Positions 1 through 41,878 are shown, counted from the first letter of the whole stretch. The stretch: DNA of 44,376 nucleotides, filler included, from Jimgerdemannia flammicorona (GCA_003990765.1; 2 parts of 2 records of this genome joined end to end with filler, not necessarily neighbours in it); one strand, 5' to 3'. Translations and numbers: made by a program. Notes: generated by a model from the letters alone, not told the origin.

Positions 1-21
1 AAAAAAAAAAAAAAAACGTAC

Positions 22-15506
<15,485 letters not shown>

Positions 15507-19385: not shown

Positions 19386-20052
19386 CTACGCCGACGCCTC
19401 ATTCCACGCAATCACGGACATCATCCCCACGCCGACCGCCATCGCCACTAATTCCGTCACCATCTGCCTCGCATCCTTCTTGAACGCCCCCGTCACCGCA
19501 AGTAGTTCGGGGATCACCCCGACCGTTGCAATGTAAATAAACCCGCCGGCGGTGAAGGGGATGACCATGTCGCCCATGGTGACGCCCGTGCCGAGGAACC
19601 CGGCCGCGGCCTCTATGGCGTGGTCGTGGGGGTGGTGCAGCGAAGCTTCTTCGATGGCAATCCCCGCCAGGGTGCCCAAAAAGGCGCCGACAGCAGTGGA
19701 GAACTGGGCAAGCATGGCCTTCTGCTTGCTGAAGCCGGATTGGATGAGGATCGCGTAATCGCCAACCTCGTGCGGGATCTCGTGGAAGAAGACCGCTACG
19801 GCCGTCGTGGCACCCACACCGGGGGACGCGTAGAACGAGGCTGCCATAGCTAGGCCATCGGTGAAATTGTGGGTCGCGTCGGCGAAGAGATTCAGGTAGG
19901 CGGAGAGTTTGATCGTGCTGGTAGGTTCCGCGGAGGCAGCGGTGACGGGTTCAGTGGTGGGTTCGGCGGGCTCGGTGGGTTTCCGTTGGCGGAGGGTGGC
20001 GGAAGAGTCGCGAGCGTCGGGTTTGCGAGCAGCGGGGGTGTCGTGTTTATGT

Positions 20053-20112
<60 letters not shown>

Positions 20113-20507
20113 CCGTGCGCGTGGCCGTGCGCGTGGCCGTGGCTATGACCGTGGCCGTCGCCGCCGTTGAAGACACGCATGCCCTTATCCATAATGAAGA
20201 AGAAAGTCAGACCGATAAAAATTCCCATGCCTATGACGATGTTCTTCTTGTCGTCGACGACAATATGGGCGCTGTGGCTGTGGTTCTCGCCCAAGAAAGC
20301 GTGGGGAATGAGGTGCAGGAAGACATCGCCCAACAGACCGCCGACAGCGAAGGCGACGAGGGTGTTGAGGGAGGAGGTGTCAATATCGGGGGGGACAAAG
20401 TAGAGAAGGAGGTTTGGGAAGATTGAAATGTAGGCGGTGGCCAACAAGGAGTTGACGGCAGGGGAACCGGGAAAGAGGGAGGCGAAAACGGTCTGCTGGA
20501 GGGACAT
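19386..20507 (-). CDS. YKE4: ZIP family zinc transporter, ZIP7/Ke4/YKE4 subfamily, intronless
   Basis: AFAVGGLLGDVFLHLIPH, LNLFADATHNFTDGLA, FFHEIPHEVGDYAIL (HExPHExGD) and PFTAGGFIYIATVGVIPELL, plus a His-rich loop. First ATG is at 20507. Confidence 0.93.
20053..20112 (-). repeat. Coding hexanucleotide microsatellite (CCACGA)n giving an (HD)n tract in the ZIP His-rich loop
   Basis: About 10 copies of TCGTGG on the + strand; translation HGHAHGHAHGHDHDHDHD... Confidence 0.9.
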
Positions 20508-22142
20508 GGCGGGGAAATAGACTAAGGGAAGGATTATTGAAGCGATGGGCCTTTTAAATACGGACGGTGGCTCTGACAAACGCCAATTTCATTGTGGCTG
20601 AGTCAATTGTGTGCCACACTTATTGGATAAATGATCAAAAAGGCACTATCTAGATAACTTCGCCTCAAATCATCTCCATCGTGGCCTTTGTGTTTTATTT
20701 TTATATCGTGCCTCTCTCCCAATACTGCACCTAGTGAGAAACTATTATAACATGCCATCACATGCCTAACAAAATTCAGAAGTTGAGGTGTCCTCAGCAT
20801 TCTCTAATGTCAAATATATATATATATCAGAAACCTTTTCTTAAAAATAAACAGAAAAGCTTTGTGAATGAATAACCTTTTTCCACTCGTTTTTTAGAGC
20901 ATGGTGTCCTCTCCTGATCGGGCGAAGCCCATGTAACCTCCGATGTGTGGTCAAAGACGGATTGTTCTGGCAGTGAATACTCCACATCAACCAACTCCTT
21001 ATAGTTATTCACAGACAACTGAATCAAGTTCTGTATGTACGAAATGCCAAATATGAGCAAAGGTCAAGTATCAACGCATCTGACTATATAAACGTTCTCG
21101 AAATGCACAGCGCTTACCCTGAGTCGCAACATACATCTTGCCATTCTCACAAAATCGGATGGGAAAGACGACGATATTGAGACCGGCACTTGAAACCTCT
21201 CCACTTCTGCACATCCATACCAGCCACTGGTAAGATACACCACGGAAAAAATTCGATAGCAGAACCGAGAGCTCAGAATTCCACTACACGGGATCTTTGT
21301 CAACAGCTTGATAGCAGAGTCTTGCTGGTGTTCGCGAGCCTGGAGCACAACTCGGGCAAGCGCTACATGACAATCTCGTAACAGAACTTGGAGTCCAACT
21401 CCATCAGTAACCATTTTTGTCACCTTGCCAGGAGAGGCTCCGATGTTAGCCGCAGCACCAAATTCGCAAGTCCGGTCCGAGAGAATGCATCTGCATGTTA
21501 TTTAGAAAAGCAGATCAAATCGTCGGCCAAAGCTTTATATGAAACGGAATTTCAAAATATAATTAACATACTGTGAAGAGCCAATCACAACTGGCACCTT
21601 TTACTTGAGGCAACACCGTAGTTTTGGAAGATGTCTTCAGACTAGACGACGATAGTGCAGATGCTCTTCTAAACCTGGATGCCCGACATTCAACTTCCCC
21701 ACTGGTAAATATGGTAAGAATAAGGAACTTTTTTTTTTTTAAAAAAAAAAAAGCTATAGTAAATACACTGAAGAAAGAAGATACCTACTAGTGCATATCA
21801 ACAATATTGTAGATGCATTTGTACAGATGAACATTGAAATTGATATCTACGTCCCTTTCCGAGTTCACTCTCGTCGTAAACCCTGATTCAATCATTTCGA
21901 CACTAGATGATTGGTTAGCAAGTACATTTCAGCCAAAAACAGGTGTGATATGTACTCACGTATATCTTAATAGATCTAATATGTGTTGCGTATCTGGATC
22001 ATCACAATCAGACATGTCGACGGTCGACGCTGAGCTTGCTTTTGGCACTGTCAGTCTTCTTTTGGCATTACATTTTGCCGTATTCTCAGCAAGACGTTTC
22101 ACAACCCCTTCATAACCCTTTCTTTTTTTTTTTTTTTTTTTT

Positions 22143-22242
22143 NNNNNNNNNNNNNNNNNNNNNNNNNNNNNNNNNNNNNNNNNNNNTTAATTAATTAANN
22201 NNNNNNNNNNNNNNNNNNNNNNNNNNNNNNNNNNNNNNNNNN
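22143..22242. other. Artificial assembly gap/contig linker: 44 N + TTAATTAATTAA + 44 N
   Basis: Symmetric 100-nt block with a 12-mer that places stops in all six frames. Base composition changes abruptly across it. Confidence 0.95.
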
Positions 22243-22323
22243 TTTTTTTAAAAAAAAAACATATTTTAATTTTTATATTATTTTAGACAATATACAAATG
22301 TGAATTTGTACTTTACTATATAT

Positions 22324-23750
22324 TGTGACGGACCAGAATATACTACCCGAATTATAACTTAGCCAGATAACACAAACAATTAGCATACTTACTCAGTATG
22401 ATGTGACTTCCAGTGTATCATAGTTACTCATGCCCGCCACACTTATAATTAGCCAAGATACCAGATCAGGATTGTTTACCTGTGTCCTGAGGACACACTC
22501 ATGTCCTGCGGATACACTCATGTCTTGCGGACACACTCATGTCCTGTGGACACACCTGTACCCAGAGGACACACCCAAACATTACCAAAGATAGCAAATC
22601 TATACTTAGCCGCATAGTAACCAGATAGCAACCAACTTGTATAAATTACCCCAGAGACAAGAGTGAATAAACCTCAGTCCGAATTGAAGTGCAAACCAAA
22701 GAAGCCTCTAAAGATTGAGCAATTGGTCCCCTTATTCCCACTCTGGTTCACTTTCTGATACAAAGAAGAGTTTGTTACGTTTTTGGTTCGCTTGCTAGAT
22801 AAGCCTGAAGATTTGCCACCTAAGTTCAAGGAGAACTTCGCTGCCTTTTGAAAGAACCCGCTGCTTAAAAGAATAAGCCACGCTATTGGTATGCTTGCCA
22901 GATAAGCCTGAAGAACCCTATCCTCTGCCTTCCCAAGAAAGCCGCCTTGCTCAAGTCAGTTTCTGATGCAACTTCGCAGTGATCCATTCGTGCAAACGAA
23001 GCCAGTCTTTGACGTAACTTTGCTAAGAGACCCTTTCCCAAAGAACGCCACCAGTTGTTTGTATTCCGAGTAGAAGCCCGCCGATTCAGGAAGAATCCGC
23101 GCCATCCTGTTTCCCAGTTAGAGCCCGCCGATTCAGGAAGAATCCGCGTCACCCGCTGTTTCTAAGCTATCTGCCATATTCCCAGTTGAAGCCGCTGATT
23201 TAGAAGAGTCCGCGCCATCCGAGTTAATTCCCAGTTAAGCTGCCGTTTTCAAGAAGCCAGCCAAATCTGCATCGTCCACCACCTTCAAGTTATCCGCATT
23301 CCCAGTGAGCTCGGTATAGAAGAATCCATGCCATATGATTCTCAGTGAGCCAAATCGAGTTTTCCGCCGAATTATCAGAACATTTGCATAAGGAACCCAC
23401 CATGCTACATGGAGATCATCGCACTACACAAGATCCCTATGCAGAAATCGCCCGCCACCCAAGAAGGAGAACCGCTAAATTGCCAGACCGTCACACACAA
23501 GGAGATCGTTGCGCTATACAGAAATTGTGCCATTCCCAGTTGACCCAAGAAAGAAAAGACATACAAATTGCCACTACACCCAAGAACCTGTCCCAAAAAG
23601 GAAACCACTCACACAGTATCCAGATCTTGACTATTATACCGCTAAACACCAAGAACATTTTGTTGCTTTTAACAAAGTAACTGGGGGCTCAAGCCAAACT
23701 ATATCAACCCCCAACCTTGTAATTTGCCTCCATTGAGCCGGCACGTTACA
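22324..23750 (+). repeat. 5' LTR (1427 bp)
   Basis: Begins TGTGACGG, ends CACGTTACA; colinear with 31343-32769. Internal 19-bp repeats at 22483-22555 and GCCGATTCAGGAAGAATCCGCG-type repeats at about 23070-23335. Confidence 0.96.
22640..22680 (+). promoter_or_regulatory. LTR TATA box (TATAAA 22640-22645) and AATAAA (22666-22671) module
   Basis: TTGTATAAAT.ACCC...AGAGTGAATAAACCTCAGTC is present in both LTRs (one substitution) and recurs reverse-complemented at about 34379-34421 in the solo LTR. Confidence 0.7.
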
Positions 23751-23752
23751 TT

Positions 23753-23767
23753 TGGGGGCTCAACTGG
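23753..23767 (+). promoter_or_regulatory. Primer binding site, tRNA-Pro type (TGGGGGCTCAACTGG)
   Basis: Starts 2 nt after the 5' LTR. TGGGGGCTC is the start of the tRNA-Pro PBS used by gammaretroviruses. The host tRNA was not checked. Confidence 0.7.
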
Positions 23768-24317
23768 AAAGATTTCAAAATTGACGTGACTTTTTAGCTC
23801 ACAAGAACCCACAGTCAAACTGGATACATTTGATACAACACCAATCTCTGCCACTACAGGAGAACCAGTCATCACTAGCATTTGGACAGGAAGAGAAGTA
23901 ATTACCTCAAGACTTGCCAACTATCCAGCATCAGAAGGATCCCAACCAGAAGCAGGAGGCAGTACAGCCCAAAATTCTCAACCAGACCAACCAGATCAAC
24001 CAGACAATACAGGCAGCCCTGCTAGAGATTTCGGAGAACTTGCACAAGAACTAGAAGATCTTATCACACGAACCCAATACTTCACAGCCAGACACCCCAC
24101 ACCAGTCCCACTAATCTCACCAATAGAACCCCTACCACAACCCCTTGCAGAACCAAAAGTAGCTCCTACAAGAATACCTAGGCCTATTTCACCTCACCCA
24201 AGGACCAGAACACCATCTTCAAGATACCCAAGCACCCCCATTTCTAGTAACAGTTCAGAAAGTGAATCAGAATCAGAATCTGAACCAGAACCAGAATCAG
24301 AAGAAAGTGACAAAGAA

Positions 24318-25508
24318 ATGGCCACCTCACTGCCAATCTTTGCAGGATACCCGGAGGAAGACCCCAGAGAATTCCTTGATAGAATTGAAGAAATCGCAGC
24401 CTTGAGGAATCTCTCAGATGAAAGAAAAATCGCTATTTATAAAGCCCAGCTCAGGGAACCAGCCAGAGGAATTTTCCACCGAACAGCAAACAACCCAGAT
24501 TCAGAATTAGTAAGACAGATACAAGTAGCAATCTCTAATGAGCTAGAATATCAGGCCATGGTCTACTGGCTCATAGAAAAGTATGCAGGAAATGAAACCC
24601 GCCATAAGGCTCAAGAATCCATCATGGGAATGAAGATGAATCTTGGAGAACCGCCCAGAGCCTTCTTCACAAGAATCCAGAAGAGAATGCATTCTGCTGG
24701 GTTCAATGCCACCAACCAGGACATCATAGGTCCAATGACCTTCATGAATGGAATTCCCCTGAATATTGCCCAGCATGTCCGCACCCTAGGCATCAGAAGG
24801 TCTGAAGAACAAGTAGATGCGGCCCAAGGATTCTTTGATGTCAGACAAGGAACCACCTGGAGCGATCATAATAAGAAAGAAGATAAAGAAGATATCCTGG
24901 TCAAGGCCCTGCAAGGACTCCTTCAAGGACAAGAAAGATCCGAGAAAAGAAGGCCAGCCAAGGAAGGAAAGAAGGACAGAAGTGAAATCCAAGACCTCAG
25001 CTCCAAGTTAGACTGATTGGTTGGACAGATCGAAAAACTCACCATACACGAAAATTGGGACTACCAAAACCACAGAGGATACCCACCACAGAGGAGCCAA
25101 GGTTATCCACCAAGAGATAACAGAAATTACCAGCAAGAAGAAAGAAGGTATCCTGCCCGAGACAAAGCCCAAGTCCAATGCTTCTATTGTGGACAATTCG
25201 GACACTATGCTACTGAATGTGATAACAAAAGAAGTGACCGAAGAGATTCAGAACCACCAAACCGAAGGAATGACACTCAGCACAAGAAGACTGAAGCCCA
25301 TCTTGTTGAAGATTTCGAGGAAGCAAGCAATAGTGAAGACTACAGTGACCTAGACTTGTATCCTACCAAGGTTACAACCCGGAAAACAGTCTATCCAGCA
25401 GAGAAGAGAAAGAGACCTGTAGGAAGACCATCCAGGAACATCAGCAGAAGAATTATCCAAGAAGAGGACGAAGAACATGAGGAGGAACAAGTAGAAACAC
25501 CTCCCTGA
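24318..25508 (+). pseudogene. Retrotransposon gag with CCHC zinc knuckle
   Basis: LPIFAGYPEEDPREFL capsid-like start and CFYCGQFGHYATEC knuckle; in-frame TGA at 25014. Confidence 0.85.
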
Positions 25509-25829
25509 ACCCCCTCACCTTTTGTTCCCGAGACAAACAAGTTGCCATCAGAAGATGAGGAAATGGAACAAGAAGAACAGGAATCTACTGCCCCAAAGCC
25601 CGAGAAGAAGTACACTCCGAAAACCATGCCTAGGGACATTTACAATGAAGCCTGGCAGAAGATTCAAGAAGCCAAGATGGAAGTCCCCCTCCTACAGTTC
25701 TTGCAATTGATACCAGCTGGAGTCTGAAACAAATTGCTGAAAACCACTAGGTCTAGCACTGGCCGAGTTCCAATCCCACAGCAAGAACCAGTTCCCATCC
25801 CTGTCCAGACAGCTGAAAGACATGTCAGC

Positions 25830-26190
25830 ACCTACTTACATAGAGACATTGGAGGACAAAAAGCGAAAATCCTCATAGACACAGGAGCAGCTATCTGTGT
25901 CATTGCCAAACGATTCTTGGACACCCTCCAATGGCCCATTGATGGACCATCCAACCTCAGCATTATAGTAGCAGATGGAGCCTGAACTCAACCCCTTGGA
26001 GAAGTACAAAATATCACCATCTCCCTTGGACACATTCAGTTCTCCATTCCCAAAGCTGTTGTCACTGAAGCTGTCACCTATGACATGATTCTTGGTACCA
26101 ACTGGATGAAGGAAATGAATGCAGTTGTTGATATCGGCCAACAAGTACTCAAGTTTGACTACCGAGGCAAGAAGTACCGAGTTAAGGTGA
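25830..26190 (+). pseudogene. Retrotransposon aspartic protease
   Basis: ILIDTGAAICVI and YDMILGTNWM motifs in the gag frame; in-frame TGA at 25983. Confidence 0.9.
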
Positions 26191-27506
26191 CCAGCTATGA
26201 GCAATTGAAGAAGAAAAAGAAGGTCACTATTCAGGAAGAATATGCCAGCAGTGAAGAATCCACCACAGAAGAAGAGGAAGAATCTGAAGATAGAAATGAT
26301 CCCAGACTCAATCCCCAAATCAATCTGGTGGATGACAGACCGGAAGACAATGTGTGGGCCAAGAACACTATGCCCATCATCATTGGAGCCATTGCAGGAG
26401 AAGTCAAAGGATGCCCTACATGTCTCAAAAGACACAAGTGTCCTGAGCACTCCTCCAAGATCATAGGAACAAGGAAATCACCTGGCACAGCCTGCCCAGA
26501 GTACAGAAGGAAGAAGAAGAGATGCAGATATGTTCCAGAAACCCCTGCAACTGAAGCTGCAGAAGTACAAGCAATTTGGGGTCAAGAATCATCCGAGAAA
26601 GAAGAAACTTCAGACCAAGAAGTTCCTGAACAAGAAGCACCCGATGAAGAAGAAGTCCCCGAACTCATCCCCTGGGATGACCCTCACTGGACACCACCTG
26701 AAGACAATGACCCCTGGAATACAGAGGAAGGACCCAGTACCATCACCATTATCTCCAAGAAAGAAATCCACCAGGAGAAAGCTTTCCGGCTAAGGAGATG
26801 TCTACATCAAATGGTCTTCTACTCTCCCCGAGACTACTGTTATCAGTGTCACCTGTTGGACCAACAAGAAAGACAGAGACCCCAGAGACCGGAACCCCCA
26901 ACTACTCTTGCACAGTCTACCACCTTTCAAGAAGTCACCACAAGGTTACAAAGTTGATTTAGAGGACAAGACTTCTTTACCAAAACAGAAATATATCCCC
27001 TGTCTACCCTTCTACCCACCTATGATCAAGATGGGTACCAATTCCCAAGACAACAGGAAATAAACAGCCGGGAACACCATTTCCGAGTAATGGGATATTG
27101 CAACCATGGGAGACACCCTGACTGCTGAGACTGCCGACATCAGAAGATTTATCTCAGTCATGATGTTGCAGTGCACACCTTGAAGAAAGGAGACAACCGA
27201 GGTCAGATCCGAAAAAGCCAGATCCAAAAAAGCCAGACCAAGAAGTCAGAAAGAAGAACCCTCAAGATCTACGATTTGGGAGAAGACATCCTAGCTCTCA
27301 TCAGACATGCAACCCACCAAGGATGGGCAGAAGATGCCACCAACTTCATGGAAGCCCTTGACCCTATAGGAAGAAGGGGAATCAATTACCTCTGAGACCC
27401 CTCTACTGGAGCCAGATGGCCACACCTCAACCTCAGAGCTTGGAGGCTCTCTGCCAGTGGAGCTTCAGTCTTAGGAAAGCCCGAACTTAGCAAGGATATT
27501 GCCCAG

Positions 27507-27908
27507 TATGCCCTGCTGCACCCCAAGGCCAAACCCCCGACCAAAGCCCACCCAGAGGATGTAGGATATGATCTTCACAGCCTGGAGGATGAATCTATCA
27601 AGCCTGGAAAAACCTTCATGGTCAGAACTGAACTAGCCATGCAGCCACCTCAAGGAGCCTATATTCAACTGACCTCAAGGTCCGGACTTGCCAGACAAGG
27701 GATAACTGTAGAAGGAGGAACCATTGACCCTGGATATACAGGCGAAATCAAGGTCATCCTACACAACAGCAGTGCAGAATGGCACCGAATCATTAGAGGA
27801 CAGAAGATTGCCCAAGCAGTCTTCATGAAGGTCAAGACCCGACAGTTACAGGAGGTCCCTGAACTAACTGAAGGAACAAGGCAAGCCAAGGGATTTGGAA
27901 GTTCAGAT
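27507..27908 (+). pseudogene. dUTPase domain within the retrotransposon polyprotein
   Basis: All five trimeric dUTPase motifs in order with no internal stop: VGYDL, SRSGLA, GTIDPGYTGEIKV, KIAQAV, RQAKGFGSS. Confidence 0.93.
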
Positions 27909-28315
27909 AGAAAAGAGGTACATCTCCTTCAAGTCAACTACCTCAAGAGGAATGTTCCCCAGCAAGTATACCGGCAACCAGTCAGACTGCACAAGAATCT
28001 CATCCTGGAGCCCAGAGAACAAACTACCTTTCAAATATTTGCACCACCTGACCCCAGGAACCTTTTCTTCGAACCCAAGGTAGATATCTCACACCTGGAC
28101 ATAGAGGGACACATATTCCCTGATAAGATGAACCCAGTATACTCCCAAGCAACCAACCAAAGTTGGGAGACCATCATCTTGCCAAAAGGAACCATCATAG
28201 GACATCTGGTGCCTTTTATCAACCGAACTCATAGGGAAGTTTATGAACTAAACCTATCGGGAAATGGCAAAAGGTCCCAGAAGAAAGGAAAGGCCCCTCT
28301 GCGACCCAGGAGACA

Positions 28316-29731
28316 GTGAAGCCTTCCACCAACATTGGAGAAGAATTGACACCTCAACAACAGCAACAACTAGTAGAACTTCTCAACAAATATCAAGATA
28401 TCTTCACCACCAATTATGGCAACCTGCCATACAACCCATCATATTACCACAGCATAAATACAGGAAGTGCAACACCCATCCGGCAGAAACCCTATAGAAT
28501 ACCCCATCTTGAAAACATTCGAAAAAGAGCATATCCAAGAACTCTTAGACAATGAAGTCATCCGACCCTCTACCAGCCCCTGGCCAGCCCTATACTTATT
28601 GTACCAAAGAAAGGAGGATGGAGACTCTGTGTAGATTACAGAAAACTCAACTCAGTCACTAAAAAGGATGCTTATCCTTTGCCCAGAATCGATGACCTTT
28701 TGGATCAGTTACAAGATGCCAGATACTTCAGCAGTATGGACCTCTTCACAGGATTCCATGAGATCCCCATAGACCCCAAGGACATTCAAAAGACAGCCTT
28801 CCTTGCTCTAGGAAAACTGTTTGAATATCTCCGAATGCCCTTTGGACTCTGCAATGCACCCCCCACCTTCCAGAGGATGATGAATTCGGTCTATACTCCC
28901 TTGATCCACTACTGTCTGATTGTATACATGGATGATTCCAACATCTATTCAGCAAATTTCGAAGAACACCTGCACCACCTAGAGGAATTCTTCAAGCTCA
29001 CCCGCAAGAATCATTTGAGATTGAATGCAAAGAAATGCTACTTCGGAAAACAGAAACTTGAATTCTTAGGATTCATGGTTTCAAAAGAAGGAACTCATGC
29101 AGACCCAAAGAAAACTGAGAAGATCAACAATTGGCCAGTGCCCAAGACTCCAAAGGAAACACTATCATTCTTGATGCCAGTATCCTACTATATAAGGTTT
29201 ATCAAAGATTTTGACCAAATCACTGCCCCAATCCGAATCCTTCTCAAGAAAGGAGTGCCATTCAAATGGACAGAATTACAAGGAAAAGCCTTCAGAGAAC
29301 TCAAGAACCGCATGACTACAGCACCAATCCTTGTGCGCCCCAACCTACAGAAGCCATTCATCTTGTATACAGATGCTTCCAAAGATGGCCTAGGAGCAGT
29401 TCTAGCCCAAGAAGGACCTGACCAACAGCACCATGTTGTGATAACTTATGCAAGCAGAGCCACCAACCAGTAGCAGATGAACTATGGTAGCACCAAACTG
29501 GAATGCCTTGCAGTCATATGGGCGGTCACCCTGTTCAAGCATTACCTCATCGGAAAAAGATTCACCCTGATCACAGACCATGCAGCCCTCAACTGGCTAT
29601 TCAACTGCAAGGAACCTGCCGGAATCCTAGCCCGCTGGATCCTTATCCTTTAGGATTACAAAATCATCATCATCCACAAAGCAGGGAAAGCCCACAACAA
29701 TATTGATGTACTTTCTCACCAGCCCCAATGA
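28316..29731 (+). pseudogene. Reverse transcriptase - RNase H
   Basis: WRLCVDYRKLN, LPRIDDLLD, MPFGLCNAPPTFQR, YMDD, LYTDASKDGLGAVL and ITDHAAL. Frameshifts near 28520-28590 and TAG stops at 29471 and about 29651. Confidence 0.93.
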
Positions 29732-30807
29732 ATCAGAGGAAGGGTGTCCCGAGGAACCACACCCTAAAGGAAGCTCCTCAGACTATCAAAGAACAAGAAA
29801 ATCTCATCCAAAAAGAACATCAGAAAGCTTACCAAGGACAGACAAGCATAGAAGACAGGATTCGAAAACAATATCAACATTGGCCCTACCTCAGAACTCA
29901 AGTCCGGGACATCATCCAGAAATGTGACATCTGTCAGAAGTACCAAGGGAAGAAGAACTATCAAGCCCCTCTGCAACCAATTCCCCCACCCACTCACATC
30001 TTTCAAAGATGGGGAGTAGACGTAATTGGACCTCTACCAGTTACACCAAGAAGAAACAAATACATTCTTATATTTGTAGAACATCTGACCAAGTGGCCCG
30101 AGGCTTTCCCAATAGAAATCACAGACGCCTTAACCATTGTAGGCCTCCTCCACAGACTCACACTCAGATATGGACTCCCAGAAGAACTTATCTCTGACCG
30201 AGGCACAGAATTCATCAACAACATAATCATCAGTTATGCCTGAATTCACAAGATCCACCTCAAATGGACTACATCATACCACCCTCAGACCAATGGTATG
30301 ACAGAAAGGATGAACCAGACCATCAAGAAAGGACTTGCCTGAGTCAATCCTACCAATTGGGACCTCTGCTTACCTGAGATCCTATGGGAAATTTGGAATA
30401 CCCCTGCTACATCCACCAAACAAAAGCCATTCAAAATGATGTTTGCTAAGAAAACCAGAACTGCTGACCATGAGAATCTTGGAGACCTCCTCAAGAAGGC
30501 AGAACAGTTACGGAATCAAGCCCAAGGACAGATTATCAAAGCCCAGGAAAGGCAAAAGAAGTACTATAACCAAAAACAGAAGGATCAGAAGATCAAGATT
30601 GGAGATCAAGTCCTAGTTTGGAGAAGCATGATTGAGACAAACTTTGCCACCAAACTAGAACCGAAATAGGAAGGACCTTATCTTGTACAAAACATCAGAG
30701 GAACCAGCATCTATTTAAGAAGCATGGATGGATGAACCTTGAGAACACCAATACACATCAATCGCCTCAAGATATACCTCTTCTCACACCATGAACCAAA
30801 GAATTGA
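29728..30807 (+). pseudogene. Integrase (HHCC-like, DDE core, GPY motif; no chromodomain)
   Basis: H..Y..CDIC, WGVDVIGPLP, LISDRGTEF, YHPQTNGMTER and K*EGPY; stops at 30241, 30340, 30667 and 30733. Confidence 0.92.
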
Positions 30808-31303
30808 CAACTGCCTCCAAACTCTTGTCCTCAGTTCCCTCCAAGCCCTACCAGTTCCCATGCCTCAGTTCTAGGATCCCAATGGAACATATCTTCAGAA
30901 AATCTGTGTTCATCAAGAGAACCTCACTTTGGCCGAGAGGCTACTCCAGGTCCACCAGCTACAGGCATATTACGCAATTGGAGAACAATTGCAAAATCTT
31001 CCTCTCCCAGACCTAGCCTATATCCAAAACACCACTGGCCTGAACAGAAGGAACACCACTGCTGTAGACAGACTATATACAATATACAAACGAAATCCTT
31101 CCGCCTTAATCCAGGCTCAGTTTTCCCTGAATGACCTCCAGAGGATGACACTGCCCACCTACCTCAGCATCATTCACCAAGTAGAGATTCTATTTCCTGA
31201 GGAAGAAGAAGAGCCCCTGGAATGGAGTGACCGTAGCTCAGATGATGATGATGGAACAGGTATAGATGCAGAAGCCGCTTATGCCTATTGGGATGACAAC
31301 TGA
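30791..31303 (+). pseudogene. Additional retroelement ORF (ORF3), ~170 codons, unknown function, acidic C-terminus
   Basis: ATG at 30791 is in frame with the 30929 ORF, with one TAG at 30872. Similar to the ORF inside the solo LTR at 34714-35637. Confidence 0.7.
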
Positions 31304-31330
31304 AGAATAGTCTGGGACAGACTACCCTTC

Positions 31331-31342
31331 AGTGAGGGCTGA
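31331..31342 (+). promoter_or_regulatory. Weak polypurine tract (AGTGAGGGCTGA) before the 3' LTR
   Basis: Located immediately 5' of the 3' LTR; only moderately purine-rich. Confidence 0.4.
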
Positions 31343-32769
31343 TGTGATGGACCAGAATGTACCACCCGAATTATAACTTAGCCAGATGACGCGAACAATT
31401 AGCATACTTACTTAGCATGATGTGACTTCTAGTATATCATAGTTACTCATGCCCGCCACACTTATAATTAGCCAAGACACCAGATCAGGATTGTTTACCT
31501 GTGTCCTGAGGACACACTCATGTCCTGCGGACACACTCATGTCCTGCAGACACACTCATGTCCTGTGGACACACCTGTACCCAGAGGACACACCCAAACA
31601 TTACCAAAGATAGCAAATCTATACTTAGCCACATAGTAACCAGATAGTAACCAACTTGTATAAATTACCCCAGAGACAAAAGTGAATAAACCTCAGTCCG
31701 AATTGAAGTACAAACCAAAGAAGCCTCTAAAGATTGAGCAATTGGTCCCCTTATTCCCACTCCGGTCCACTTTCCAATACAAAGAAGAGTTTGTTACGTT
31801 TTTGGTTCGCTTGCCAGATAAGCCTGAAGATTTGCCGCCTAAGTTCAAGGAGAACTTCGCCGCCTTTTGAAAGAACCTGCCGCTTAAAGGAATAAGCCGC
31901 GCTATTGGTATGCTTGCCAGATAAGCCTGAAGAACCCTATCCTCCACCTTCCCAAGAAAGCCACCTTGCTCAAGCCAGTTTCTGACGCAACTTCGCAGTG
32001 ATCCGTTCACGCAAATGAAGCCAGTCTTTGACATAACTTTGCCAAGAGACCCTTTCCCAAAGAACGCCACCAGTTGTTCATATTCCTAGTAGAAGCCTGC
32101 CGATTCAGGAAGAATCCATGCCATCCCATTTCCCAGTTAGAGCCCGCCGATTCAGGAAGAATCCGCATCACCCACCATTTCTAAACTATCTGCCGTATTC
32201 CCAGTTGAAGCTGCCAATTTAGAAGAGTCCGCGCCATCCGAGTTAATTCCCAGTTAAGCCACCGTTTTCAAGAAGCCCGCCAAATCTGCATCGTCCGCCA
32301 CCTTCAAGTTATCTGCATTCCCAGTGAGCCCGGTATAGAAGAATCCGCGCCATATGATTCCCAGTGAGCCAAATCGAGTTATCTACCAAATTATCAAAAC
32401 ATCTGCATAAGGAACCCGCCGTGCTACACGGAGATCATCATGCTACACAAGATCATCATGCAGAAATCGCCCGCCACCCAAGAAGGAGAACCGCTAAATT
32501 GCCAGACCGTCACGTACAAGGAAATTGTCATGCTATACAGAAATTGTGCCATTCCCAGTTGACCCAAGAAGGAAAAGACATACAAATTGCCGCTACACCC
32601 AAGAACCTGTCCCAAAAAGGAAACCACTCACACAGTATCCAGATCTTGACTATTATACCGCTAAACACTAAGAACATTTTGTTGCTTTTAACAAAGTAAC
32701 TGGGGGCTCAAGCCAAACTACATCAACCCCCAACCTTGTAATTTGCCTCCATTGAGCCGGCATGTTACA
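31343..32769 (+). repeat. 3' LTR (1427 bp)
   Basis: Begins TGTGATGG, ends CATGTTACA; same length as the 5' LTR. Confidence 0.96.
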
Positions 32770-33448
32770 ATATCTAAAAGTGGTAGAGAGATTCCAACTA
32801 ATATGTATGTTTCATTATATTGAATTAAAACAACTTGAGAAATCGCCAGTATTCAAGTTAAAAAAATATGAATCTATGGTCAAGCATTCAAAAGATACAT
32901 CATGTATTGTTACCTGGAAGAAATTTATAAATAATGAGTAAACTAGTGATGTGTGTTTTATAGTTGAAAATAGATTCATATATACATACTCATTCTTGAT
33001 ATCCAATCGTTGTAACTATTATAATGCCATGTTTGCAAGTGGAATAATAGAGAAAATATCAAAATATAATCAAAAACAAGATATTGTAGTAAACGACTTC
33101 AAATATAACACAGTATTTTCAATATTGGAATTTTTATATACTGATCAGTTAGATGATATAGAATTTACTATAGATGATTGGAAAGATATATATAGAATTG
33201 CAGATAAATATAACATTATAAGTTTATGTATATTGGCTGAGAAACAATATAACCAATTATTTACAATTAATAATGTTGTAAAAGAATTATTTACATTTGC
33301 ATTTAATTATCCAGCACTCTGTGATATTTGTATAGATTATATAGAGATATATAAAATACATTTTAATATAATATTGATATTGGAATATATAAATTGTAGG
33401 CAATATTATAGTTTAATGATTCAGATTTATAAAATTATATTAAATTGA
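32770..33448 (+). pseudogene. BTB/POZ-domain protein (SPOP-like), split by the LTR element; upstream exon piece at 22287-22323
   Basis: TSDVCFIVENRFIY..FLISNRCNYYNAMF...VFSILEFLYTD...ADKYNIISLC. The frame is open from 32771 to a TAA at 32939 and joins 22288-22323 in frame across the TSD. Confidence 0.8.
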
Positions 33449-33530
33449 ATATTGTAATTTAATATTGAATTTTTTTTTAAATAAACAAAAAAAAAATAAA
33501 TACACTATTTGATTATATATATGTATATAT

Positions 33531-35843
33531 TGTGGCATGTAGTTTGTATCTCTAGTTGCTTCTTTCATGGCCCAATGTGTCACTTGGTGAAGCGCGCGAT
33601 AGATATGAGTGTGTTCGCAATGGTTACGGATTGATAGTCATGTGATCGGTGTGTTCGATTCATATGATAATTGATAGCAGGAGTTCGATTGTTCGTTGGC
33701 TCAATTGTTCAATGGCAAAGACAGCGATTATTTATAATACTGGTGGGTATCTTGACGGCAGACTTGAATTTAAAGCGGTCAATTTGAAGCAGGTGATGGT
33801 CTTGACTTTAAGCGGTTTGTGGTATAGTAGGGAATCGTTCGGGTCAACAGTTCAGTCGAATGTTCGTTCTTAACTTGAGGGTGGGTTCTGGCAGTCGTTC
33901 GTTTACTGGCGGTCTTGTTCTAGTATCCTTGGGTTCCTTGGCTGGGTTTCTGGGCCTTGAATCTCGAATGGCGGTCCGAATGGTGGTTGGTTCCAAATGC
34001 ATGATGGTTGGGTCGAATGTACAACGGTTGGGTCGAATGTACGATGGTTGGGCTGAATGTACGATAGTTGGGCTGGCGGGATCTCGGCGGTGGTTGGTGG
34101 TTTTTTGTATGGCTTTCCTTTAGCGGCGGGTCTTTAAACTGAATTTGAACGGCTTTTCGTGCGGCTTTCCTTAGCGGCGGGTCTTTAAACTGAACTGAAT
34201 GGCTTTTCGTGTGGCTTTCCTTAGCTGCGAATCTTGAACATTTTCTGTGGTAAGAGAAAATTCTTTAACTCGAACCTTGAGCGATCGTTGCTCTAGTTAT
34301 CTTGTTCTCAGAATTTATCCGGTCTCTTAGAGGCAGTGAGGTTTCTCTATAATTCTTTTTTACTTTTAAACACAAACTGACTGAGGTTTATTCACTCTAA
34401 GATATAGGGTTATTTATACAAATTTGCTAGCTATGGGGGGGGGCTAAGGTATATTACATTGTGGTGGTTTAATTGCTGAATATGGGTGCGACAATTGTTT
34501 GCACCGAATTGGGATAAGATGAGTGCTGGTGCTGAATATGGATGTTGTGGGTGGTATCGCTGAAAACAGGTGCGACAATTGTTTGTGCCGAATGGGGATA
34601 AGATGAGTGCTAGTGCTGGATATGGATGTTATGGGTGGTATTGCTGAAAACGGGTGTTGCTGACTTGCTGACAAATGTTGGCTGACCGGACTGAGGAAAC
34701 AGACATTGGATCACTAAATGGTAAAGTACCCTTCATCAGTAATCCAATCATCTTGCTGGGTTGTGACTTCTTCATCCCATTCTTCAAAGGGTGGGAGCGC
34801 TGACCAGGAGGTGAGGGGGTAGAATTGTGGCCAATCATCTTCGATGACATTCTCCAACCCTTGGACTGCTTGAAGGCAGACAGAGGATTGGTAGATTCTT
34901 TATTCCTCCTCTTCTTCTTCCTCAGATCCTTCAGTTTCTGTGTTGGTAGGGACTTCTGGGACTTCTTGATTTGGTTCCCAAATGATGAAGTGCGAATTGT
35001 AGCTGACAGGGTAGTGAGTAGTTGGGGTTGCTCCAACAGGTGTTGTAATAGTAATGGGTGGTCCTTCGAAGATTTCCATGAGACTCATTAGATGACCTTG
35101 ATGGTTGTCTTGGAGTAGAGTGGTGTGAAAGCCTGGTTGAGTGGGCTCAGTTTGTTGGCTTCCTATAGTGACCCGGTTACTACCAATAGAGTCGGCTACT
35201 TCTGATTCTATCCAGTCTGCATCTTCAGTTGAGAGATGAGCAAGACTTCCAGCAGTCACTCCTTGTAAGTGTGCTATAGCCCAGAGAATATGGCGGAAGA
35301 TTTGGTAGACACGGAGGGCTCTCTAGATTAGCCGGCTGGTGGTTAACATTTCGGCAATGAGGTCTTCCTGGTCACCTTCTTGGGTTTCATTATGAAGGTG
35401 GTGTCCAATTTTGTAATTATGCCAGAGGGTCATTCGTTCAGTGGTATCTTTGAGCTATTGGGTCATTATGTACTGATAATTGATGAAGTGTCTAAGATCC
35501 TCGGTGTAGAAGTTCAGATGTTCAGAGGTGTCTGGGCGCCAAATAGCCTTCTTGATAGCTTCAAAGATTAGAGTCTTTGGGCCAGGCAAGGGGGAAGAGC
35601 GGCGGGAGGTCTGGTTGGAGTGGCGGATAGGAGGCATTGTGTAGTGGGTACTTGTTCTTTGGTGCTGATTCCTGAGGCAGAGTATGGTTCTTTAAATAAT
35701 CTAGTCTTCCTTTTGGCTTGGATTATCATTGCTCCTTTTGGGGTGATCACCTAATGGGTCAGGCTGTCTATTTGATTGTCATGCCATTATGTTGTCTGAT
35801 CTTAGCAGTCACCGGTACTCCATTGTCAATTGCGTACATCACA
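33531..35843 (-). mobile_element. Solo LTR (2313 bp) of a related retrotransposon family, reverse orientation
   Basis: On the - strand it starts TGTGATG and ends CATGCCACA, and is flanked by ATAT on both sides. It shares the TATA/AATAAA block with the 1427-bp LTR. Internal 84-bp (34473-34656), ~50-bp (34111-34226) and 18-bp (34003-34075) tandem repeats. Confidence 0.8.
34714..35637 (-). pseudogene. ORF inside the solo LTR, probable homologue of retroelement ORF3
   Basis: Single frame with stops at 35455, 35323 and 34900: ...TLWHNYKIGHHLH...RALRVYQIFRHILWAIAHLQGVTAGSLAHLS... followed by an acidic Trp-rich tail. Confidence 0.6.
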
Positions 35844-36564
35844 ATATATATATAAATAACTTTACCAATGGTTTAAATTCTGAAATAAGTGTGTATATTT
35901 TCTTAATAACTTATATGATATTATAAATTTTCCAAGATATGTCAATCTATTATCATGTTATATATGTGCATTAATTGTCATCCAATCACATAAAATATAA
36001 TAATTGTGAATTCAAAAATTTTATACTTTGGGGTATGGGAGTATATATTATATGAGCATTTAATGCCATCTAATGATTTAAAGTATAATAATCATGAATT
36101 TAAGATTTTATACCTTGTAATAAGTATTGTAATTAGAGCGTACACGATTATATATTATGTACATGTCTATATTATCTATATAAAATTGTGAATTTAATAT
36201 TTTTATACTTTGATATATGTAGTATAATTAGTATACGAATTATGTATGCACATTTATTACTATCTAATAGCATAGTATTATGGTATAATTTTACTTATTA
36301 ATATGTGTCATACATATTATGTGAATAATCTGAACCTATATGTTTATATTTTACAATATATTTCAGTATTGATCACATGATGTAAATGTTTATATTTTAG
36401 ATATTGGAATTTATATTTTCTGTATTTACAATAGTTATCATATTTTACAAACTGCTGATAACAATCACATGATATATACTTTTACATTTTATATTTTGAA
36501 ATTTATATTTTCAATCTTTATGATGAAAACTGTTCTTGTATAAATCACATGATATAAATTTTAC

Positions 36565-37215
36565 CATCCAACCATTCAAAGCTTAAAAATCTTAAATTCA
36601 TAATTATTATACTTTGATGTAGACAATATGATTGGAGTGCACACAAATATATTTCATGTGCATATCAGTGACAGCCAATCGTTTGAAGCTTAAAAATCAT
36701 GAATTCACAATTATTATACTTTGAGATTGAATATATTATTGGTGCATAAATTACTCATATTATATGAGTGATTATTGCCAGCCAACCATTCAAAGCTTAA
36801 AAATCTTGAATTCACGATTATTATACTTTGATATGGAGAATATGATTGGAGTGTACACAAATATACTTTGTGTACATGTCTGTAACAACCAATCATTTAA
36901 AGCTTAAAAATCTTGAATTCATGATTATTATACTTTGAGATTGAACATATTATTGGTGCATAAATTGCTTATATATATTATATATATAGTTATTGCTATC
37001 CAATCATTCAAAGCTTAAAAATCTTGAATTCACAATTATTATACTTTAAACTATACACTATGTTTGGAGTACACACAAATATACCTCACGTGCATATCTG
37101 TGATAGCCAATCATTCAAAGCTTAAAAATCTTGAATTCAAGATTATTATACTTTGAATGATATACTATGATTGGTACATAAATTATATATGCGTATTTAT
37201 TGCCAGCCAATCACT
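36565..37215. repeat. AT-rich tandem array, ~6 units of ~107-110 bp with alternating A/B subtypes (~215-bp dimer)
   Basis: Core CAATCATTCAAAGCTTAAAAATCTTGAATTCACAATTATTATACTTTGA near 36570, 36678, 36785, 36891, 37001 and 37110; degenerate copies near 36006-36210. Confidence 0.9.
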
Positions 37216-37407
37216 CAATATCATAATGTACAGTTTGTAAAATAACACATATTATGGAAATTATATGTGAAACCTGAAATTAGATTATTTTTTTATCTTT
37301 ATAATAAATAATCATTACTTTTCAAAACCTTGCTAGTGGTCACATGATACAAATATATTTTTATTTCATAATTTAAACATTTTTACATTTGAAATTAGAA
37401 GTTATTT

Positions 37408-37662
37408 AAAAGTTTAAATTAGTTACATGATATAATTTATTTTTTGTTTTGAAATTCTGAAATCACTTTTTTTCTTTATAATAAAGAATTGTTAAAAGTT
37501 TAAATTAGTCACATGATATAATTTATTTTTTGTTTTAAAATTCTGAAATCACTTTTTTTTCTTTACAATAAAGAATTGTTAAAAGTTTAAATTAGTCACA
37601 TGATATAATTTATTTTTTATTTCAAAATTCTGAAATCACTTTTTTTTTCTTTACAATAAAAA
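37408..37662. repeat. AT-rich tandem array, 3 units of ~86-87 bp
   Basis: AAAAGTTTAAATTAGTCACATGATATAATTTATT...TTCTGAAATCAC at 37408, 37494 and 37581; the TCACATGAT motif recurs at about 36373, 36465, 36545 and 37339. Confidence 0.88.
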
Positions 37663-38246
37663 ATTATATTTCATTAAAAATTTATATTTTAGATTCTGAA
37701 ATTTATATTTTTTGTATTTATAATATTATTATATTTTACAAACTACTGATACCAATTGTGTGATACATTATTTTCACAAATCTGTTGATATTTATTTTTT
37801 TTATCTTTATAATAAAAAATTATATACTGTAAATTAACTTTAATACTAAATATAGCATTTTTGTGTTTTTTTTTGCAAAATCTGATAATATATTGTACTT
37901 TAATATATATTATCTATACTAACTTTAACTTAAATTATTTATTTTATTTTTTTTTAAAAATCTAAAATTGTATATTATCTTTACAATAAAGATTTATTAA
38001 TTATATAATATAAATAATATATAAATTTTAAAATCATATGTTTTATTTTGTATAAATATTAGATAGTTAATATATATAATTATTAAAGTATACATGAATA
38101 TACTTTATATACTTTACTATTAGCTAATTGTTCAATATATAAATTATGTGAATTTTATATGTGATTATTTAATATTTATTATCAGTTAATTATTCAGATT
38201 ACAAAATGAATATAATTTTCATTATATTGAGTTTATTATTAAATTA

Positions 38247-38669
38247 TCAGTTATTATATTTTACAAAATAATCAAAACAATTATTACCATATTCTAAATT
38301 ATCATTATTATGGACAACATTTTCGTCAATTATTGGTTTATATTCAATAATATGATCATTATCAATTTTGTAAATTTCACCACTATTCATAAAGATATCA
38401 TTTTTTAAATAAATATTCGAGTTCAATCTATAATTCTTATAAATGTAAATTCCTGAAACATGTGTATCAATCCATGTCATAAGCATTCGTTTAAGACAAA
38501 CATTACATTATAATGATTTCCCACTAGATGATAAACGGTAATGTTTCGTATGTGATAGATTATCCATTATTGTGACTGTGCTATCATTTTCCAAAGTCTT
38601 CATTGCTCTGTACATATAATACTTTATATGATATATACAATGGCTTATATTATCAGGTTGTATTGACAT
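38247..38669 (-). pseudogene. Intronless ORF of unknown function, ~140 codons, one premature TAA
   Basis: ATG at 38669 (MSIQPDNISHC...) is in frame with ORF 38247-38486; one TAA at about 38508. Confidence 0.45.
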
Positions 38670-38818
38670 TTTATGTATTTATTTTAGAAGTAAATATATA
38701 GATATATATAATTTCTCATACAGACAGAGAATGGTACATGCACATATATATATATAGAACTACCTTATATATAATAACATATATTGTTGAATAAAAAATA
38801 ATAATAATAATATATAAC

Positions 38819-40153
38819 CTAATATATAGGAACTAATTTTAGATCTTTTTGGTGTTTAAAATATATTTTGATTTTTGAATTATGATATGGTGCAAACAAT
38901 TTTACCATATGTTTATATTTTCGTATCACTGCAATGCTACTTGGTGTTTTACTATTTCCATCACAGATTGTAGGGTTAGCACCCCAATTGTAAAGCAATT
39001 GTGACATTTTGTGGTTCTTTGCAATAACCATTGTGTAAAGTAATGTTTGTCCATGTCTATTTTTTTTCATAATAATTGAACTTGGATCTACATTGAACTT
39101 GGTTTCAAGCATACTCGCAATGCTGTGGTAATTGTTCATGATAGCCTTGTAGAGAGCTGTCTCACCAAATTTGTCTTCAATTTTGATATCAATATTATAT
39201 TTACATAGAAGTTCTACAGGTCCACGGTGTCCTGCTACAGTTGTTAGATGTAGAGCAGTGCGCCCTATTAGTTCTTTACTATTAATAATAATATCATCTC
39301 ATTTAGTTAATAGCAATTTCAAAAAACATATGTTATTGCACAATGATGTATGATGGAGTGGTGTTCGGCCACTGCAATCGGGTTTGTTAATATCAATATG
39401 CTTTGTTAAGAGACTAGAAACAATTGGACATTTGTTGTATATTATCACCCTTGACAAAATACACCTTCCTTTGCTGTCCACAGAATTTGGATCTGCATTA
39501 TATTCATTAAGAAGTAGTTCTACAGTACTTCTCTGAATGTAAGAACTCTTTTCTGTTAATATAACATAATGAAGAAATTTATCTACAGTTCTGGCTTGGT
39601 TTGGAGCCAAATTTAAAATTGTCCTGATAATGTCTTCATTTTTATTGCCAAATGCTACTTTTAATGCCTGTTGAATAGTATTCATCCAAAGTATCTTAAT
39701 GTCATTTCTATCGCATTATAGAAGTGTCCGGACTATCGAAATACTCTCAGTTTCAACTGCCATAACAAGTGGTGATTCATCTGGATCCTCTGATGGCCAG
39801 CTTGGGATAAACGGTATAGTATCCATTACAAGTATTGTTTCCAAAACATTCTCTATCATATGGTATATGGCCCAGTAGATAGGTGATAGAGGTGAAGTGA
39901 TGTAATATGGTAGACCATCTATTAGCAACTCCCATTCTATAGTGATATATTCTTCTATTAACAAGAATGGCATTTCTATTACAGCCTTTACAATTTGGTT
40001 TTTATATCGCCGCGATATGATTGATGTAGCATTGACATGTAAAATATCCTGACATCCTTTGCATGTGTTGTCAAGTCTCGTAACATCGACAGGGTCAAGT
40101 AATTTGCAGATGCTCAGAAATATTTTGACTAGTATATTCGTTGGAAAACACAC
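38819..40153 (-). pseudogene. Ankyrin-repeat protein with an F-box-like N-terminus, intronless, two premature stops
   Basis: Three listed ORFs share one frame. N-terminal FPTNILVKIF...LDPVDVTRLDNTCK; ankyrin motifs GRTPLHH, GRTALHL, GETALYKA, GQTLLY and GANPTICD; stops at 39716 and 39299. The start codon is uncertain. Confidence 0.82.
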
Positions 40154-40307
40154 TGGTATTTTCAGTTTGTTATTAATAAAAAGAAAACAAAAACGTTTTC
40201 ACACACAATCAAAATAATATATATGTTTATTTGTTTATTTTTCACATTGGTTACACTCATATTACAAGGGTTGTACATATATTCATCAGATCACACCATA
40301 CATTTTG

Positions 40308-41878
40308 TCAAAATGGAACGTCTCCAATTAAATTGATGCTTTTCTCACATGTATCAGATCCACTAACTGTAGAAAAATGCCAATCATCACAATCCAATCT
40401 TTTAAACTCGAGTCAACATATTTAAATCTAATTTCTGTTGCATATCATTCCACGTTTACACCCCATGTGAAATTTCTCTCAATGTAAAACTTTATCATTT
40501 CAATAGTATCAAATAAAATATTGCCAGTTATACGAATCCACTCACTTTTTGGTGGATCTATATCTAAAGCAGATGGCCTCATATGCGATACACATTCACA
40601 TATGAATGCTCTGAATTCGTCAATTGTATGTGATGGAATTGTTGGCAATGCCATTTGCTGACGTACAATGTCAATCACCAGAGCCATGAATGGCCCTTTA
40701 CAGTAAATACCCAACTGACCTTTCAATGCATCGCATTTTTTAATCTCATCAAAGAATTGTACTGAAAGCATATATTTAAGAATCACAGTGGTATTGGCCA
40801 GATCATTGGAAAATACTATCTTTAGATGGTTAAAAATATAGCTGGCAAGAGCAAGATGTCCATTGGTGACATTAAATATTGCATCAATCACGTCATTGAA
40901 GAATTATATCCCATCTACCACTGTATCCAATTCATGTCTCATCAATCACAAATCTGCAAGTCCAAATACTGGTTCAGCAATAGCTATTATTTCAGTAGAG
41001 TAAACCTGGCAGCCGTGTTGATAGAGCATGAGGATTTGCAAATTTGGATTTCGTTGATATGCATGGAATGCAGGCTATAAAAAGAGTATAGGAATTCTAA
41101 AAAGCATGTCTGCATCATCAATGATTACATCGGTCTGATCTGTGTATTCCAAGATATCACTCTATAATATTTCCATTTGATCTATCCAAAACATGTCAAA
41201 GCAATCTCTGGATTTTGCATATAGTCTGTCATTTGATAGCACCGATTTCACTGATATCGATATCACCTTATGCCCCTTGTTTTCAAGGAACTGTTTAAGA
41301 GCACTGCCAAATATAGTCTTTCCAGAATATGGTGGGCTAACAAGAATGGCGCATGGATGGTCATGCCATTTGGAATTGAATTCAGACACACGTTTTATTA
41401 CCATTGTGGCCTTGGATACTCTGCTGGGGTCATTTGCATTTATTTTGTTTATGTACTCTGTAATAGTTATTGCTGTATTTAGTGATATTCCACACAGTTT
41501 CAGTGATTCTGTGGTTTGTAATAAAAATGATTAACCTGCAATTTTTTCATTTATAAGCACATTCAAGACAGTGTGATTACAGATAATGCTATAATCATGT
41601 AGATGTTCAATTAATGTGTGTGTATCAAAGGTTTTAACTTCATTATGTGATAGAGGTGATATAGATGAGTATTTTCGCTTCCCTGTGACAGAGATATATA
41701 TATCCCTAATGTCTCCATCGATAATAAATGATGTTGGGGCATTGGGAGTCAAAAATGTGTATGATGGGTATAGTATATCCAATCTTTGATGTAACATAGT
41801 CCAGGTTGTTGTTTTCCACAACAGTATGGGCACAGTTTCTCCATTAGACAACCTGAATTTTCTGATAATAAATTCCAT
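40308..41878 (-). pseudogene. Crinkler/RHS-type protein: N-terminal header + SAM-like domain + P-loop NTPase + truncated REase-fold nuclease
   Basis: EVKTFDTHTLIEHL...INEKIAG*SFLLQTTESLKLCGISL (SAM-like), SPPYSGKT (Walker A), VIIDDAD (Walker B), VTNGHL and KFYIERNFTWGV. Several in-frame stops; the 3' end is approximate. Confidence 0.7.

Follow-up and report, generated by a model that had tools for sequence, protein, structure and literature searches.

Which mutational process has damaged the long terminal repeat (LTR) retrotransposon at positions 22324-32769 of a stretch of Jimgerdemannia flammicorona DNA (GCA_003990765.1)? The stretch, hereafter the window, comprises 44,376 nucleotides including filler and joins parts of two records of this genome. 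A sequence-only reading of the window had proposed C-to-T hypermutation resembling repeat-induced point mutation (RIP) and led by CpA, in an apparently non-Dikarya fungus. We find that the element, a ~10.4-kb Ty3/Gypsy LTR retrotransposon with an extra dUTPase, is defunct, and that its mutations fall preferentially on CpG, on both strands. The best explanation is probably a CpG-methylated transposon that decays by deamination of 5-methylcytosine (5mC), and not classical RIP. The assumption about the host was correct. The open reading frame (ORF) at 2054-7135 (minus strand) encodes a cytoplasmic dynein heavy chain, and the 600 amino acids searched were 100% identical to the NCBI entry "dynein heavy chain [Jimgerdemannia flammicorona]" (next match 86%, Mucorales ~81%), a member of the Endogonales (Mucoromycotina, Mucoromycota). 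A review puts the genome at ~240 Mb with >77% repeats, mostly Ty3/Gypsy (PMC10386755).

Self-alignment identified the LTRs as direct repeats at 22324-23750 and 31343-32769, each 1427 bp long with TG...CA termini, 93.5% identical and aligned without a single gap. They differ at 93 positions, comprising 89 transitions and 4 transversions. For the first 375 bp, the earlier count of 18 differences, all transitions between LTRs of equal length, was reproduced exactly, and so were the naive contexts assigned to them (11 CpA/TpG, 5 CpG, 2 CpT/ApG). Across the entire LTR, 18 of the 35 naive CpA/TpG sites form nine adjacent doublets that read TG in one copy against CA in its partner. By parsimony, such a doublet descends from CG mutated on opposite strands, and the 18 sites therefore belong to CpG and not to CpA. 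A misreading is thereby corrected, because TG/CA doublets between copies represent opposite-strand CpG decay rather than RIP-type CpA events.

With the doublets merged and C/G taken as ancestral, the LTR pair yielded 59 events per 304 site-copies at CpG (rate 0.194), 17 per 370 at CpA (0.046), 8 per 348 at CpT (0.023), and 5 per 360 at CpC (0.014). The odds ratio of CpG versus all other contexts was 8.4 (p = 1e-20), and the per-site rate was 4.2 times that of CpA. Of the 76 CpGs inferred for the ancestor, 27 persist in both copies, 39 show CG versus TG/CA, 9 TG versus CA, and 1 CG versus TA; 49 of the 76 have thus been altered in at least one copy. Both strands are affected to a similar extent (47 C>T, 42 G>A), and the T/A state of the 89 transitions resides in the 5' LTR in 46 cases and in the 3' LTR in 43. 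Runs tests on the LTRs revealed no strand-coherent tracts (24 versus 22.4 expected, p = 0.74; 21 versus 21.9, p = 0.45), although this evidence is weak, since several rounds of RIP would blur such tracts. The LTRs also lack a preference for TpCpG, with 13/48 events at ACG (0.27), 24/110 at GCG (0.22), 7/44 at TCG (0.16), and 15/102 at CCG (0.15).

The base composition of the element fits this spectrum. The observed-to-expected ratio (o/e) of CpG is 0.22 in the element interior (0.20-0.28 by part) and 0.66-0.69 in the LTRs, and both TpG (1.32) and CpA (1.13) are in excess in the interior. The genes at 1-13551, the dynein region, have a CpG o/e of 1.11, and unique flanking DNA has 0.82-1.14 in 1.5-kb windows (0.94 in 21001-22500, 1.11 in 33001-34500). 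The claim that C-to-T hypermutation is confined to the repeat was borne out by this difference between element and surroundings. RIP is usually diagnosed from TpA/ApT >= 0.89 and (CpA+TpG)/(ApC+GpT) <= 1.03. The corresponding values are 0.61 and 1.52 in the interior and 0.83-0.86 and 1.28-1.31 in the LTRs, so that the composition of the element opposes classical RIP. The inferred ancestral LTR had a CpG o/e of ~0.94, and LTR decay therefore happened in place. Spectrum, context dependence, strand symmetry, and restriction to repeats are all directly observed.

Two other regions of the window have an unusual composition. A long single-frame pseudogene lies at 38200-44226 (minus strand). Its read-through product is interrupted by ~25 in-frame stops of all three types (TAA, TAG, TGA) from residue 246 to residue 1802 and shows P-loop-like motifs as well as ankyrin repeats at the C-terminus (Pfam Ank_2, E = 2e-25). 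The pseudogene has a GC content of ~33% and a CpG o/e of 0.3-0.5; CpG depletion is accordingly not limited to the retrotransposon. An AT-rich block at 36-39 kb (GC 18-23%) was considered as a RIP footprint and rejected, since it is built of tandem repeats and has more CpA and TpG than expected. The AT-rich tandem repeats lie at 36551-37741 and have periods of 107/214 and 87/173 bp.

The stop codons of the element are best read against its layout, which comprises the following features.

22320..22323, no strand: putative target-site duplication, left copy ATAT, directly 5' of the 5' LTR
22324..23750, plus strand: 5' LTR, 1427 bp with TG...CA ends, matching 31343-32769 without gaps
22324..22423 (also 31343-31442), plus strand: first 100 bp of the LTR, with a local cluster of CpA-to-TpA differences in the LTR alignment
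23790..28319, plus strand: ORF1, encoding gag (zf-CCHC), aspartic protease, and dUTPase, with seven in-frame TGA codons (Pfam zf-CCHC, gag-asp_proteas, dUTPase)
28556..29731, plus strand, in another frame than ORF1: ORF2, encoding reverse transcriptase (RT) and RNase H, with stops at 29471 and 29651 (Pfam RVT_1, RT_RNaseH_2)
29707..30807 (end approximate), plus strand, third frame: ORF3, encoding integrase, with stops at 30241, 30340, 30667, and 30733 (Pfam Integrase_H2C2, rve)
31343..32769, plus strand: 3' LTR, 1427 bp, from self-alignment
32770..32773, no strand: putative target-site duplication, right copy ATAT, directly 3' of the 3' LTR

Along the element, the Pfam domains follow the order zf-CCHC, aspartic protease, the added dUTPase, RVT_1, RT_RNaseH_2, Integrase_H2C2, and rve. 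The RVT_1 and RNase H matches fall within the stop-free part 28556-29470 and those of Integrase_H2C2 and rve within 29707-30240. The dUTPase domain is located between protease and RT (27528-27905, ORF1 residues 1247-1372, Pfam E = 4e-26); in some fungi, Metaviridae-like elements with a dUTPase have been described. A metagenomic contig related to the element (L001) matches it at 82% nucleotide identity over 27260-30779; relative to this contig and to soil contigs, 2 bp are missing from the window after 28507, just upstream of ORF2, and 1 bp after 28581, inside ORF2. The three ORFs occupy three successive frames, a layout shared with the related contig (28317-28556 and 29704-29731 in the window; 1380-1409 and 2791-2794 in L001). 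The TGA stop of ORF2 at 29729 is likewise present in that contig, whose next ORF begins 4 bp before the end of ORF2. This common arrangement suggests that expression depends on frameshifting or that both sequences share an old lesion. In the interior (23751-31342), the plus strand is rich in A and poor in G (AT skew +0.2 to +0.35, GC skew -0.07 to -0.23), a retroelement-like asymmetry that is a separate matter from the LTR differences. Because the flank is AT-rich, the ATAT duplication is weak evidence. Two 44-base N runs (22143-22186 and 22199-22242) end 82 bp upstream of the 5' LTR, and the left junction is therefore close to assembly gaps or masked sequence.

The seven premature stops listed in the earlier reading (25014, 25506, 25725, 25983, 26955, 27126, and 27393) are indeed all TGA and are the sole stops in the frame 23790-28316. 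Their proposed origin from CGA is supported for most of them. Related sequences cover six of the seven sites and have Arg at five of these, with CGA at 27393 in the related contig, whereas the relatives show only W at X573. The metagenomic protein fragments also show Q at X646 and W at X1113; both Gln and Trp are possible decay products of CGN. At the other stops of the window, the related contig has CGA at 30241 and 30733, CAG at 29471 (TAG in the window), CAA at 29651, TGG at 30667 (TAG in the window), and AAG at 30340. It also has TAA at 28317, which therefore appears to be the natural end of ORF1. The contig differs from the window by 391 transitions and 253 transversions and has a CpG o/e of 0.36. 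A protein search for shorter relatives of ORF1 retrieved 11 fragments, all from metagenomes, with a named J. flammicorona model not among them, and one for full-length relatives (829-2641 aa) gave no match at E = 1e-20 or better. A single related locus was found in JGI metagenomes and none in viral contigs (two queries).

The sequencing runs that contain parts of the element are exclusively soil metagenomes. Four such runs from two studies (X1-X4) provided 3139, 152, 195, and 450 short contigs with 80-100% identity to the element, placed on 22324-31342. In X1, 472 contigs are at least 99% identical. The sampled soils probably harbored this fungus, or one very closely related to it, carrying the element in many copies. 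Among contigs of at least 80% identity, transitions account for 795/894, 759/880, 702/811, and 1377/1585 of the variable places, that is, 86-89%. Set against the ratio of 391:253 for the older divergence from the related contig, this share indicates that the transition excess belongs to young, decaying copies. Individual variants were listed for 40 of the 2113 variable places, the seven TGA sites not being among these 40. The 37 transitions in the list (window-derived: CC 7, CA 6, CT 5, CG 2; derived in the others: CG 5, CC 5, CA 4, CT 3) show no CpG dominance; because the listed places are fixed lineage differences chosen by support, they were not used as a spectrum.

Taken together, the CpG bias, its presence on both strands, the restriction to repeats, the enrichment of TpG and CpA, and the CGA-to-TGA stops form the standard footprint of 5mC deamination in a CpG-methylated transposon. 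It is from this mutational footprint that we infer methylation as the cause. We propose that a Ty3/Gypsy element encoding gag-protease-dUTPase, RT-RNase H, and integrase landed in an AT-rich intergenic region of J. flammicorona, where methylation of its cytosines, chiefly those in CpG, would have silenced it. As 5-methylcytosine deaminated spontaneously on one strand or the other, CpG would have turned into TpG or CpA much more rapidly than the remaining sites mutated. Such deamination would leave LTRs that diverge almost only by transitions, CGA codons turned into TGA nonsense codons, and a CpG-poor, TpG/CpA-rich element beside genes of normal CpG content. The enzyme was probably a maintenance methyltransferase of the DNMT1 or DNMT5 type. 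The earlier reading had offered a repeat-directed mutagenic defence or heavy CpG plus CpA methylation as the cause; its methylation alternative is favored here, in a form directed mainly at CpG, and its RIP-like, CpA-first framing is not. Fungal 5mC is reported to concentrate on transposable elements (TEs), and Phycomyces, another member of the Mucoromycota, is reported to possess DNMT1-class and DIM-2-class enzymes. A literature search on Endogonales or Jimgerdemannia, covering titles, abstracts, and selected passages, found no report of CpG-type transposon decay like that described here. We regard it as a known kind of process in a lineage that is new for it, and not as a new system.

The role of CpA requires separate consideration. 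The earlier RIP-like, CpA-led framing does not agree with a per-site rate at CpG about four times that at CpA, with CpA/TpG in excess at a TpA/ApT of 0.61, with the lack of strand runs, and with a CpA excess that is patchy. The first 375 bp of the LTR contain 11 of the 17 CpA events, 7 of them within the first 100 bp; this sample is atypical, which explains the impression that CpA came first. In the first 100 bp, 7 of 34 site-copies carry CpA events, compared to 10 of 336 in the rest (Fisher p = 3e-4, for a segment picked after seeing the data). The seven clustered CpA-to-TpA differences are split between both LTR copies, and the local rate is as high as that at CpG. Outside this segment, the CpA excess is not significant (10/336 versus 13/672 for CpT plus CpC, p = 0.37). 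Chance could account for the cluster, as could a conversion tract or non-CG methylation specific to the LTR edge. No clear preference for the third base was seen at CpA in the LTR pair (CAA 3/126, CAC 6/84, CAG 3/88, CAT 5/68).

The coding regions provided further counts of T/A states derived in the window versus those derived in relatives. For pol, compared with the related contig, these were 24:10 at CpG, 44:18 at CpA (p = 0.0013), 60:69 at CpT, and 30:44 at CpC. At codon positions 1 and 2 alone, they amounted to 15:2, 15:4, 23:27, and 7:6 in the same order. The non-synonymous changes of ORF1, compared with the protein fragments, gave 24:7 at CpG (p = 0.003), 12:20 at CpA, 25:30 at CpT, and 14:13 at CpC. 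The CpG signal thus replicates in the LTRs, pol, and ORF1. The CpA signal does not, being present in the LTR cluster and pol and reversed in ORF1. There may be a minor CpA-to-TpA component, for example from low-level non-CG methylation, for which the evidence is inconsistent.

Several results weigh against decay of methylated CpG as the full account. Some CpA excess is observed in pol (the 44:18 above), and in the LTRs CpA exceeds CpT plus CpC with an odds ratio of 2.6 (p = 0.011). Outside CpG, the LTRs show 30 transitions and 4 transversions, more transitions than a share of 0.67-0.71 would give (p about 0.004-0.02), and this excess is unexplained by pure CpG methylation. The polarity of the LTR transitions is an assumption; other copies allowed a check at just two sites (23510 and 23702), and at both they support C/G as the ancestral state. 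Furthermore, the interior has a CpG o/e of 0.22, while the LTRs retain about 63% of their CpGs and the related contig has an o/e of 0.36. It follows that the interior was already CpG-poor at insertion and that its depletion is partly inherited. This suggests that CpG loss is long-standing in the coding sequence of this Gypsy family.

Some of these points would also be expected from a true RIP-like defence, in which a repeat-triggered enzymatic cytosine mutator (e.g., DNMT1-, DIM-2-, or RID-like) acts on duplicated DNA in Endogonales with the preference CpG > CpA > CpT/CpC. The extreme transition bias (89:4 overall and 30:4 outside CpG) agrees with it, as do the second rank of CpA in the LTRs and in pol (44:18, and 15:4 at codon positions 1 and 2) and the TAG stops that match CAG and TGG in the related contig. 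Dual CpA and CpG signatures are reported in Tuber, a Dim2-dependent CpA mutator in Zymoseptoria, and a DIM-2-class enzyme in Phycomyces. We nevertheless consider such a defence unlikely. The element has an excess of CpA and TpG and a TpA/ApT of 0.61, strand-coherent tracts are missing, and the CpA excess of the LTRs is gone outside their first 100 bp and reversed in ORF1 (12 versus 20). RID and RID-dependent RIP are reported only from Ascomycota (PMC4352252), and RIP-like signatures were enriched only in ascomycetes in a kingdom-wide screen (PMC12543289). The defence would also have to be weak, given the reported >77% repeats. Its most specific version, a repeat-directed mutator of Endogonales with dual CpG and CpA specificity (e.g., a DNMT1-class plus a DIM-2-class enzyme) that acts most strongly at LTR edges, appears equally doubtful to us. 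If true, it would constitute a RIP-like genome defence outside Dikarya, in a genome that still consists of >77% repeats. Nothing observed here requires a repeat-induced mutator.

Nor does it seem at all probable that no targeted process was involved, the family being CpG-poor by descent and the LTR differences reflecting ordinary context-dependent mutation or poorer repair in heterochromatin. The low CpG content of the related contig (0.36) and of the interior at insertion would be accounted for in this way, yet the LTRs started from a CpG o/e of ~0.94 and since insertion have lost 49 of 76 CpGs from one or both copies, and neighboring unique DNA retains 0.82-1.14. We give a slightly smaller chance still to the idea that the LTRs are not a clean sister pair, owing to an assembly chimera near the gaps at 22143-22242 or to ectopic gene conversion among thousands of copies, and that their differences sample the diversity of the family. 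The N runs 82 bp upstream of the 5' LTR, a target-site duplication of just ATAT in an AT-rich flank, the abundance of the family (3139 contigs from one soil run), and the deviating first 100 bp of the LTR are compatible with this idea, whereas the equal length without any indel over 1427 bp speaks against it. Since the family-wide spectrum is of the same kind (86-89% transitions), the process would stand even under chimerism or conversion, and the dating alone would change. Deaminase editing or RT error during retrotransposition, finally, is so improbable as to be nearly negligible. The A-rich, G-poor plus strand (AT skew +0.2 to +0.35) and the dUTPase of the element might hint at it. Errors made before integration would, however, enter both LTRs alike and not distinguish them, and the strand-symmetric differences (47 C>T, 42 G>A) centered on CpG already contradict it.

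The closest counterpart of methylated-CpG decay, our preferred explanation, is found in basidiomycetes, where TE copies are reported to carry a CpG-type C-to-T signature together with Dnmt1 class IIA (Masc2-like) enzymes and without RID (Amselem et al., 2015, PMC4352252). The C-to-T bias is in both cases concentrated at CpG in TE copies of TE-rich genomes, and in basidiomycetes it is attributed to the Dnmt1-class methyltransferase and not to RID (PMC4352252). The host studied here differs in belonging to the Endogonales (Mucoromycota), and the data concern one element plus metagenomic relatives rather than a genome-wide survey. Hypermutation of repeats at CpG-containing targets outside Ascomycota is also reported from Pucciniomycotina, there at TpCpG (Horns et al., 2012, PMC3318451). 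No such preference exists in the present LTRs (TCG 7/44 versus ACG 13/48, GCG 24/110, and CCG 15/102).

Classical RIP of Neurospora and other Pezizomycotina shares with our element the dominance of transitions, the nonsense codons, and the inactivation of repeated DNA. It differs in that CpG here ranks far above CpA, CpA/TpG is enriched and not depleted, TpA/ApT is low, and strand-coherent tracts are missing. In Zymoseptoria tritici, Dim2-dependent mitotic CpA-to-TpA mutation is described, with >98% of C-to-T changes at CpA and CpG spared (Møller et al., 2021, PMC8016269). The process affects methylated TEs during vegetative growth, is linked to a methyltransferase, and could serve as a model for any minor CpA component; in contrast to it, CpG dominates here (59 events versus 17 at CpA). 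Within Mucoromycota, Phycomyces blakesleeanus is reported to have repeat-targeted 5mC with CG above non-CG (Zemach et al., 2010, as cited in PMC7862722 and PMC13297926). Repeats marked in this way, mainly at CG, would be expected to decay as observed in J. flammicorona. In Phycomyces, the methylation was measured, whereas in the different order Endogonales we see its presumed mutational footprint only.

The CpG bias has direct consequences for dating. LTR divergence is 6.5% overall, 2.67% when restricted to the 1275 non-CpG sites, and 0.28% for transversions only, in line with the earlier prediction that insertion ages based on LTR divergence would come out too high. In these genomes, counting CpG sites inflates such ages about 2.4-fold, and the inflation is greater if non-CpG transitions are accelerated as well. 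At the sequence level, the data indicate strong CpG-specific C-to-T decay of Endogonales transposons with neighboring genes spared, in an under-sampled and very TE-rich lineage of mycorrhizal Mucoromycota. The pattern predicts TE-targeted CG methylation in Endogonales; it does not establish RIP outside Dikarya.

Downstream of the element, an ORF with a BTB/POZ domain (32951-33448, plus strand) starts 182 bp past the 3' LTR, and the 1.5-kb segment that contains most of it (33001-34500) has a CpG o/e of 1.11. Upstream, a gene for a ZIP zinc transporter is located at 19386-20579 (minus strand; Pfam E = 3e-64). It contains a GTC/GTG repeat with a 12-nt period at 20016-20165, which probably encodes a His/Asp-rich loop.

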